Of a stretch of 64,000 nt of DNA, positions 34,118-36,074 are shown one piece after another. The notes under the pieces are model-generated. The model was not told the origin of the DNA. It did not search any database and saw nothing but the letters and a program-made list of their open reading frames with translations. The stretch comes from an uncultured Lachnospiraceae bacterium (GTDB taxonomy: Bacteria > Bacillota > Clostridia > Christensenellales > UBA1242), in the NCBI GenBank assembly GCA_964393975.1, contig CAYMVO010000003.1, positions 11,760 to 75,759 of the forward strand, read 5' to 3'. Numbering within the stretch: position 1 is the first letter of the stretch; every line of letters begins with the position of its first letter. Position numbers and translations under genes: made by a program.

Positions 34118-34834
34118 ATGTTGGAATTTACTTTGGTAATGACAGGGGTGGATGATATTACGCTAGAGCAAGAACGTTCATTATTACATAACAAAGTGCG
34201 AGATAAAGGTGGCATTTTTTCTACACTCGTTATGGATAAAGACATCTATTTTTTGATAGCGAGTAATAAAAATGAAGATTTGATTTTAGAGGATATTACT
34301 CAAACTATTATAAATAGTATCAAGTCTTTCAAGACGAGTTTTGTAAAAGAACATATCAATTTTAAAACTAAAAACAAGATGAAATTATCAGCACTTGTAA
34401 AGGCGCTAGTAAATTTTGATATGGGTAGTGACGCGAAGGTGATAAGGTATAAACTACTACTCAAAAACGAACTCAATTTGTATTCGTTTTATAGATTTAG
34501 ATTGAAAGATTTGGTGGATAAGTGGAGTCAACTCGTAGATATAACAAATCAAAATGTCGGGTTTTTGGGCTTTGATGAGACGTATATTGATATTATTCGG
34601 TTTTTAGTGGACGGTATATCGGTAGGTGAAGAACTTAAAGCGTTTATGCAAGATAAGGTGGTAAGCTTTTATAATAAAAACGACGAACTATTAAAAGAAT
34701 ACAGTTTTGATATGGAGCGATTTTTTGATGAACTCATATCGCATAATCCTAGCAAACTCACTATACACGGGTTTAGTGGAGATGTGAACGAGTTTTTGAT
34801 GCAATTATTTGCGGATAGAGTAAAAATTTCTTAA
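34118..34834 (+). CDS. YtxC-like sporulation protein
   Basis: LNLYSFYRFRLK...YIDIIRFLV resembles YtxC; same position upstream of thrS as in Bacillus/Clostridium. Confidence 0.65.
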   Translation: MLEFTLVMTGVDDITLEQERSLLHNKVRDKGGIFSTLVMDKDIYFLIASNKNEDLILEDITQTIINSIKSFKTSFVKEHINFKTKNKMKLSALVKALVNFDMGSDAKVIRYKLLLKNELNLYSFYRFRLKDLVDKWSQLVDITNQNVGFLGFDETYIDIIRFLVDGISVGEELKAFMQDKVVSFYNKNDELLKEYSFDMERFFDELISHNPSKLTIHGFSGDVNEFLMQLFADRVKIS

Positions 34835-34841
34835 AAAATCA

Positions 34842-34870
34842 TTGGCAACATATTAGCGTGGTAGTATAAT
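34842..34870 (+). promoter_or_regulatory. SigA promoter of thrS leader
   Basis: TTGGCA, 17 nt, TATAAT. Confidence 0.7.
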
Positions 34871-34899: not shown

Positions 34900-35132
34900 T
34901 AAGCATAAGCAAGATCCAAGTAGTCTATAACAATCTTTTGAACTAGAGATGCGCGTTCGTGGGCTGAAAGACTCGCACAAAAGGTTATAGGTGAAACCAC
35001 TTTTTGCCAGCCAACGCCCGAACTGTTTAGCGTTATAGACACAAATAAGGCTCGCTATTTAGCGAGTGAAATAAGGTGGAACCACGGTTATATATCGTCC
35101 TTAAAGTAGAATATACTTTTTGGGCGTTTTTT
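34900..35132 (+). promoter_or_regulatory. T-box riboswitch, Thr specifier (ACC)
   Basis: Stem I with AGTA/GAA loop E, AGAGA bulge, GCTGAAA loop; specifier ACC at 34996-98; T-box AAGGTGGAACCACG at 35073-86; terminator CGTCC/GGGCG plus T run. Confidence 0.92.
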
Positions 35133-35164
35133 GTTTCTATAAAAATAATAAGGAGATTTATATT

Positions 35165-35785
35165 ATGGATGAAAAAGAATTGCAAAAATTAGAAGAAAAG
35201 AAGCAAAAAGAGATGACCGCTCGCCATACTATGAGTCACGTGCTTGCGGGTGCTATCAAGTCTATCTTTGGCGATGTCAAGTTTGGTATCGGTCCTGCTA
35301 TTGAGGATGGTTTTTACTATGACTTTGATATGGAACACGCCTTAAATGAGGAAGATTTTGACGCTATTGATAAAAAAATGCGTGAATTGGTCGAACAAAA
35401 TTTGGATATGGTGCGTGAGGAGGTCTCTAGAGAAAAGGCGCTTATGATGTTTAGTGACCAACCGTACAAGGTGGAGTTGATTAAAGATTTGCCAGAAGAT
35501 GAAGTTATTTCCGTTTATCATTTGGGAGATGTGTTTACCGATTTGTGTCGTGGTCCGCTTAGAGCAAAAGGTTATAGAGTAGAAAAAGATTTTAGAAATG
35601 AAAAGATTGGATACAAAATCCGTGAAGCAGTCAAAATGAAAATACCTTATATGGTAATTATTGGCGATAATGAAATGAATAATAATACCATTAGCATTAG
35701 AAAGCGTGGAAACGAAAGTATTAACGATATTACTTTTGATGACTTGTGCTTAAGTATAGATAAAGACATAGAGAATAAGATATAA
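35165..35785 (+). pseudogene. thrS: Threonyl-tRNA synthetase with catalytic domain deleted in frame (editing domain fused to anticodon-binding domain)
   Basis: RHTMSH...GFYYDF...DLCRGP joined directly to LRAKGYRV.KDFRNEKIGYKIRE...PYMVIIGD; junction near 35557; no class II motifs. Confidence 0.8.
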
Positions 35786-36074
35786 TCTATTATGGCATTA
35801 GACTTTTTAGTCTAGTGCTTTTTTGCTATTTAAATGAGAAAATCACCTTAAACGATTAAATAGTGTAATCTTGTGTATCATTTTTAGAGGGGCATCTTGA
35901 GTATGCGATTAGTACTGCTAAAAAACATAATGTAAATTTAACTTATTTAAATGAGTCGTTTGAAGTCTGATTGTTGTATTATTTGACTAGTATGGCGAGT
36001 GAAAATCTAACTAGAAAAACTTTTATAAAGAAATCAATTATTGAATGAAAATGTAGAAAATTTTTGATATTTGC

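Follow-up and report, generated by a model that had tools for sequence, protein, structure and literature searches.

A remnant of a threonyl-tRNA synthetase gene behind a T-box leader in an uncultured Lachnospiraceae bacterium that carries a complete thrS gene on a low-GC island

The remnant gene and its expression signals

How can a gene that is preceded by the regulatory apparatus of a threonyl-tRNA synthetase (ThrRS) gene lack the entire aminoacylation domain of the enzyme, and from where does the cell then obtain its ThrRS? This question is raised by a locus in a stretch of 64,000 nucleotides (hereafter the window) from an uncultured Lachnospiraceae bacterium, a gut member of the Clostridia with a small genome. 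The original prediction, which was made from the letters of the window, described an intact T-box for tRNA-Thr with the specifier ACC and a ribosome-binding site (RBS) in front of an open reading frame (ORF) for 206 amino acids, in which DLCRGP is joined in frame to LRAKGYRV at about position 35557. All of these elements were recovered, that is, the RF00230 match, the specifier and the sequence AAGGAG, and the junction was found exactly there, between P131 (35555-35557) and L132 (35558-35560). The 206-codon open frame at 35165-35785 on the plus strand fuses a part of the ThrRS editing domain in frame to a part of the anticodon-binding domain. The locus comprises the following features:

34118 to 34834, plus strand: orf238, a conserved neighbour upstream of thrS, with homologues at the thrS loci of relatives
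34842 to 34870, plus strand: putative sigma-70-type promoter TTGGCA-17-TATAAT, a consensus match only (11 of 12 positions)
34903 to 35105, plus strand: T-box leader for tRNA-Thr, with the specifier ACC at 34996-34998 and UGGA at 35077-35080 (full RF00230 model)
35096 to 35132, plus strand: terminator hairpin of the T-box with a U6 tract (predicted fold of -13 kcal/mol, z -2.5, followed by UUUUUU)
35150 to 35155, plus strand: RBS AAGGAG, 9 nt upstream of the ATG, by direct reading of the sequence
35165 to 35557, plus strand: remnant codons 1-131, the N-terminal 70% of the N2 editing domain of ThrRS, ending in DLCRGP (TIGR00418 positions 1-114; E. coli residues 70-185)
35558 to 35785, plus strand: remnant codons 132-206 and the stop codon, the anticodon-binding domain minus its first strand and helix (PF03129 positions 24-87 of 94)
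35794 to 35819, plus strand: intrinsic terminator of the remnant unit, an 11-bp stem followed by a T run (-15 kcal/mol, z -5.8)

The leader at 34903-35105 matches RF00230 over the full model (positions 1-219) with 65.8 bits and an E value of 4.6e-14. Since the Rfam gathering score for RF00230 is 93, the leader was missed by a scan of the whole window at the gathering threshold and was found by a local scan with an E-value limit. The thrS T-boxes of related bacteria, of which 16 were detected in 19 relatives, reach 60-91 bits and thus all remain below 93 bits, so the cut-off of Rfam is too strict for this lineage. The specifier lies in the context GAA-ACC-A at 34993-34999, in which the codon is followed by a purine. 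Moreover, the T-box sequence AAGGUGGAACCACGG holds the UGGA at 35077-35080, which is complementary to U73-CCA, the end shared by the three tRNA-Thr genes of the genome, among them the gene for tRNA-Thr(GGU). Because both the specifier and the UGGA fit the tRNA-Thr of the genome, the switch is coherent with its tRNA. All elements that are invariant across the thrS leaders of the family were found in the leader of the remnant. The predicted terminator hairpin at 35096-35126, which precedes the U6 tract, has its 5' arm within the T-box match that ends at 35105, as is expected of a switch between terminator and antiterminator. With the promoter, the T-box, the terminator/antiterminator and the RBS untouched, transcription of the remnant in response to uncharged tRNA-Thr probably still takes place.

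Behind the leader, the ORF runs through the editing-domain residues up to DLCRGP and continues with three quarters of the anticodon-binding domain, counted from its C-terminal end. In a profile search, residues 20-131 corresponded to positions 1-114 of the TIGR00418 thrS model and a second stretch to positions 495-563, and a Pfam search aligned residues 131-194 with positions 24-87 of the 94 positions of HGTP_anticodon (PF03129). By mapping onto solved ThrRS enzymes, residues 18-131 were placed at residues 70-185 of the E. coli and 72-184 of the S. aureus enzyme, and residues 129-198 at residues 566-635 of the S. aureus enzyme. In full-length relatives, 377-387 residues (1.13-1.16 kb) lie between the two junction points, and about 380 codons are gone from the remnant. 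There was no Pfam match in the remnant to the class II core (PF00587, tRNA-synt_2b) and the TIGR00418 positions 115-494 are missing; the deleted core comprises motifs 1-3, the zinc site and the dimer interface. In E. coli numbering, and with the domain boundaries of the structure 1QF6, four pieces are lost: about 39 residues at the end of the N2 editing domain, the linker helix, all of the catalytic core and, from the anticodon-binding domain, the first strand and helix. Thus, Pfam, TIGR00418 and the alignment agree with the earlier claim that the editing His and the class II core have disappeared and that the anticodon-binding domain is without its first strand and helix. The N-terminal TGS domain is absent as well, which is the normal state of thrS throughout this whole family.

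Both domains that were kept are severed within their folds. The editing site of the type HxxxH...CxxxH is incomplete, as H21, H25 and C128 are kept and the His after CRGP, a near-invariant residue among 42 ThrRS sequences, is replaced by Leu132. The retained residues H21, H25, K102, D126 and C128 are presumably the equivalents of H73, H77, K156, D180 and C182 of E. coli ThrRS and would thus represent five of the six residues of the editing site, a list that reportedly goes back to work by Dock-Bregeon et al. 2000/2004. The sixth residue, the equivalent of H186, is absent from the remnant. The tRNA_SAD domain was matched only over positions 1-17 of 44, with 18 bits against a cut-off of 24, and the C-terminal part falls short of a complete class IIa anticodon-binding domain (PF03129) because its first strand and helix are gone. 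The whole remnant scored 155.5 bits with TIGR00418, for which the equivalog cut-off is 383.65 bits. The remnant is derived from a bacterial ThrRS, yet it is a member of this enzyme by none of these measures.

In the AF2 model of the remnant, residues 128-147, including the first retained strand of the anticodon-binding domain, are coil, the pLDDT drops below 50 at residues 132-135 and the pTM is 0.61. The predicted picture is that of two half-domains without a defined mutual arrangement. The high pLDDT of 89 reflects full-length homologues in the underlying alignment and is hardly informative on whether the cut domains are stable; the model was used solely to show the floppy junction.

Reality of the junction and the native thrS locus

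Two sources of the junction had been considered by the original prediction, a chromosomal deletion and an assembly collapse. A real deletion that cuts inside both domains stood up to the comparison with further data and the collapse did not, because the same ORF with the same junction occurs, with SNPs, in 12 other assemblies that were made by different assemblers from different samples. The junction was found in at least nine ENA MEGAHIT assemblies (ERZ27279213-20 and -34) and four Logan assemblies (SRR11880811, -14, -23 and -32). At 12 loci, on contigs of up to 78 kb, the gene order is unchanged, the identity to the window is 99.6-100% outside one divergent block and SNPs are present on both sides. 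Three protein variants (the exact sequence, A28V together with I176V, and I176V), all of them 206 amino acids long and 99-100% identical, were found on at least 19 contigs. To judge from the accession series, the assemblies stem from one or two studies, and their independence is hence one of samples and assemblers and not necessarily of host populations. For an artefact of assembly or binning, by which a full-length thrS would have been collapsed, no supporting point was found in this draft genome of 38 contigs. The identical junction is present in the NCBI genome as well as in the SNP-bearing ENA and Logan assemblies, and the halves of the remnant are only 63% and 40% identical to the other thrS gene of the genome, so that the remnant cannot be a chimera of that gene. 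An artefact is thus extremely improbable, and this reading can be regarded as effectively refuted.

Outside the species, no short homologue with full coverage was present among 5.8 billion proteins; the sole full-coverage cluster is the species' own and has three members. The remaining short matches are pieces of full-length thrS and extend over no more than 74% of the query. The fusion was seen in none of 40 relatives, a degenerate pattern of the junction was found neither in 185,579 species genomes nor in the JGI metagenomes, and a degenerate probe for a C-terminus of the native type, as would be carried by an intact close allele, had no match in the JGI metagenomes. Moreover, a literature search yielded no description of a bacterial ThrRS remnant of such architecture. 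There is no conserved protein family with this architecture, which is confined to a single species. The proposed search for the junction in independent genomes was therefore successful in further assemblies of the same species and came out negative in all other species searched.

The sister species from the same genus (G001) has the gene order GDPD, lepA, hemW, orf238, T-box, a full-length thrS for 600 amino acids and a gene for an LRR surface protein, which is also the order in the window. Orf238, for which there was no Pfam or NCBIfam match, has homologues directly upstream of a T-box and thrS in G001 (71% identity), in six other members of the family and also at the loci L055 and L069. The position of orf238 upstream of thrS in relatives marks the locus as the ancestral thrS site, which the remnant occupies.

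The two parts of the remnant differ in their affinities. The C-part (residues 132-206), which is up to 69% identical to relatives, is sister to the C-terminus of the G001 thrS product (69% identity, UFBoot 98). The N-part (residues 18-131), with 54-76% identity to relatives, does not group with G001 (54%), and is nearest to thrS of MAGs that carry the label Christensenella sp. UBA1242 or uncultured Clostridia (72-76%). With the UBA1242-type MAGs L055 and L056, the N-part shares 75-76% and the C-part 44-50% identity. The nearest relatives of the two parts are thus incongruent, each placement having a UFBoot value of 98, which points to mosaic thrS alleles; either lineage may be the one that recombined. 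Across 300 genomes of the family, thrS alleles of very different similarity classes occur within one genus (E values of about 1e-160 and about 1e-260 with the same query), and the genera with such divergent classes include g14, g15, g51 and g56. In the genus g41, seven of the eight sampled genomes gave two thrS matches. These patterns suggest that thrS is frequently exchanged or replaced among these genomes of about 1 Mb.

The complete thrS gene and its island

If the remnant was real, a second thrS had to exist elsewhere, and the search of the study genome (G000; 1.08 Mb, 38 contigs, 99% complete) bore this out with one complete copy. It is located on the minus strand at G000:C5:14919-16598 and is, with 687 bits, the only TIGR00418 match above the cut-off of 384 bits. 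The weaker TIGR00418 matches in the genome are SerRS, ProRS and GlyRS. A split gene, in which the catalytic core of ThrRS would be encoded separately, was rejected because no other TIGR00418 matches than these three remain. The editing motifs of the complete gene product are whole (RHTMAH and DLCRGPH, i.e. HxxxH/CRGPH). Upstream of the gene lie a promoter that resembles TTGACA-17-TATAAT and a leader of about 190 nt, and no T-box, not even a degenerate one, was found there at E values of up to 10.

The complete thrS lies together with a Bud32-like gene, orf303, and a radical SAM/SPASM gene on an island of 4.8 kb (G000:C5:14743-19589; L036 7744-12590), which has a GC content of 28.7%, as opposed to 34.3% in the genome, and is flanked by genes for an S26-like peptidase and an ABC-F protein. 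In G001, which has neither the island nor orf303, only 72 bp separate the S26-like from the ABC-F gene. Given the close spacing of the flanking genes in G001 and the low GC content of the insert, the complete thrS is a lineage-specific insertion. Gene conversion from the island thrS was also considered as the source of the N-part of the remnant and was rejected as a recent event, as the two are only 63% identical. The product of orf303 (303 amino acids, 23.8% GC) has a Bud32-like kinase fold, and the gene is absent from four relatives. The location of thrS beside a gene for a radical SAM/SPASM maturase-like protein recalls the self-resistance copies in antibiotic gene clusters; no convincing small ORF for a precursor peptide was found next to the radical SAM gene, in the upstream gap of 544 bp.

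The fate of the remnant and its relation to known systems

Taking structure and history together, it is very likely that the native, T-box-controlled thrS underwent a real, species-wide in-frame deletion and that the enzyme is supplied by the island copy. The lineage would have gained the second, complete thrS without a T-box on the low-GC island, and the deletion of about 1.15 kb would have been tolerated because this gene had already been gained. The native thrS would then have lost its 380 or so codons by a single in-frame deletion, leaving the island copy as the sole threonyl-tRNA synthetase. The remnant would be translated into two half-domains on a floppy linker, which would have no aminoacylation and most likely no editing activity, and it would be fixed in the species with its decay yet to come. 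The product is probably a non-functional young relic of the native thrS that was displaced by the acquired copy and may still be expressed under the control of the T-box. The restriction of the architecture to a single species, the cuts through both domains, the replacement of the CRGP-associated His by Leu and the editing site of the island enzyme itself speak in favour of a relic, as do a haplotype with A28V at an invariant column and the common turnover of thrS in the family; the in-frame result, moreover, has one chance in three with any deletion. However, the ORF, the promoter, the T-box, the terminator and the RBS are intact, the frame has neither a frameshift nor a stop codon and the SNPs have a synonymous bias, all of which counts against a relic.

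The signs of constraint are ambiguous. Of the seven SNPs in the ORF, five are synonymous and two are conservative non-synonymous changes, and the neighbouring genes show this ratio too (36:12). Under neutrality and with the observed transition spectrum, the 5:2 split has a P value of 0.04-0.05, which rises to 0.2 if the tight pairs 35488/35491 and 35740/35746 are each counted once as imported tracts, and the test is confounded if the imports derive from lineages with an intact gene and hence with a synonymous bias of their own. In comparison with the 42 ThrRS sequences, the retained parts keep 19 of 19 invariant columns and all near-invariant columns bar one, the junction His, and the reference strain carries no degenerative substitution at conserved columns. 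One strain haplotype has A28V at a column that is invariant in the 42 sequences. The branch of the C-part is not accelerated (0.10 for the remnant and 0.41 for G001), and no frameshift or stop codon was found in the ORF of any strain examined. The intact signals, the SNP bias, the kept residues and the short branch would fit a very recent deletion equally well.

The same observations can be read as traces of a function. The deletion product could be a small, non-catalytic protein derived from ThrRS, produced solely in response to uncharged tRNA-Thr, that kept or gained a function. It would either bind tRNA-Thr, so as to sequester it, protect it or hand it over to the island ThrRS, or carry out weak trans-editing of Ser-tRNA(Thr). 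The intact expression signals with a T-box that fits the tRNA-Thr of the genome, the five retained residues of the editing site, the SNP bias at P of about 0.05, the conserved columns without degenerative change in the reference strain and the short branch would be accounted for. However, the protein occurs in one species only, it has lost H186 together with the last 39 or so residues of the editing fold (tRNA_SAD over 17 of 44 positions) and has an anticodon-binding domain without its first strand and helix. Moreover, the editing motifs of the complete thrS leave no apparent need for trans-editing, the invariant column at residue 28 is polymorphic (A28V) and the preserved frame had a prior of one in three. 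A kept or gained function is thus doubtful, and it is still less likely that the mini-protein is under selection as a starvation-induced factor for binding tRNA-Thr or for residual trans-editing. In the latter case, it would be a bacterial counterpart, reached by another route, of the freestanding proofreading and tRNA-handling proteins that are derived from synthetases.

The trans-editing role that the original prediction held to be conceivable found no support, since the island thrS encodes HxxxH/CRGPH, the remnant lacks the second His and about 39 residues of the domain and the fusion exists in no relative. Moreover, the likeness to the crenarchaeal Ser-tRNA(Thr) hydrolase ThrRS-ed (NF011500), which combines editing and anticodon-binding parts without a catalytic core, is superficial. 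It is limited to the anticodon-binding part, as residues 132-200 of the remnant match model positions 297-365 with 33.8 bits against a cut-off of 362. The editing domain of archaeal ThrRS has a different, DTD-like fold. Furthermore, ThrRS-ed consists of complete domains and is conserved across species, whereas the remnant consists of two cut domains in a single species. AlaX/AlaXM proteins of the tRNA_SAD superfamily (NF040865) are homologous to the N2 domain and share the HxxxH motif, but they have the full HxxxH and CxxxH site and a complete fold, while the remnant is without the second His and scored 28 bits over residues 13-115 against 300.

It could also be the leader RNA that is selected, with the ORF as a passenger. 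The leader might then, for example, act as an RNA that binds uncharged tRNA-Thr or insulate transcription of orf238 and the LRR gene from each other. Indeed, there is not a single SNP in the 203-nt T-box among the 10 assemblies with the common leader; with about 1.4 SNPs expected at the local diversity, this absence is not unusual. The strain represented by L052 and L054 (ERZ27279218 and SRR11880832) differs from the window at 87 positions between 34529 and 35149 (about 14%; about 11-14% in the leader). This divergent block (L052 1-620, L054 1-308) comprises the 3' half of orf238, the promoter and the T-box and ends about 15 nt before the start codon of the remnant; from 35150 on, the sequence is identical to the window over the whole ORF and 6 kb downstream. 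The divergent leader, which scores 62 bits as a T-box, keeps its predicted fold by compensatory changes, among them G-C in place of A-U in stem I and U-A in place of C-G in stem III. This mosaic shows recombination with a fairly distant relative at the remnant locus. The donor may have an intact thrS, and selection on the leader after the deletion is thus not proven; the divergent haplotype was probably shaped in the donor lineage, in front of an intact thrS, before it was imported. Furthermore, the remnant has its own terminator, so the downstream gene is not under the control of the leader, and we know of no trans-acting T-box leader. Selection on the leader RNA is therefore highly unlikely.

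A young relic of a displaced gene, which remains the preferred reading, can be placed among known systems. With bacterial thrS (TIGR00418, in the TGS-less short form of this Christensenellales-like family), the remnant has the locus, the T-box and the N-terminus in common, but it is short of about 380 residues and functionally no member. B. subtilis has the duplicated ThrRS genes thrS and thrZ, which are both controlled by T-boxes. Duplicated ThrRS genes are also known from Anabaena as T1 and T2 (PMC4787780; reviewed in PMC9437257). These cases resemble the present one in that a genome has two thrS genes, one of them under a T-box, and in that a duplicate frees one copy to change. However, both copies are complete, active and used under different conditions in those bacteria, whereas here the T-box copy is gutted and a constitutive-looking copy is the sole enzyme. 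In the xenologous displacement of aminoacyl-tRNA synthetases, an acquired copy takes over and the native one is lost (PMC2588523). The same would apply here, where thrS types switch between congeneric species, and the difference from the usual displacement is that an intermediate stage appears to have been caught, with the native regulation and the reading frame still intact. The locus would thus show, as a clean snapshot from nature, how an essential aminoacyl-tRNA synthetase gene is displaced by an acquired copy on an identifiable island. If the weak signs of constraint hold in more strains, the remnant would also become a testable case of a synthetase fragment that has been recruited to a role under tRNA-sensing control.

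The remnant also bears a risk for annotation. Pipelines may label it as threonine--tRNA ligase or as an anticodon-binding-domain protein, and T-box control of ThrRS would then be inferred in this genome, yet the working enzyme has no T-box. Two further synthetases of the genome are short as well. The ProRS at G000:C7:50542-51870 is a short form of 442 amino acids that fails to reach the cut-off with two out of three models for bacterial ProRS, and the AlaRS at G000:C5:26367-28148 is a short form of the PRK01584 type with 593 amino acids. Together with the TGS-less ThrRS, they indicate that this genome carries generally trimmed synthetases.
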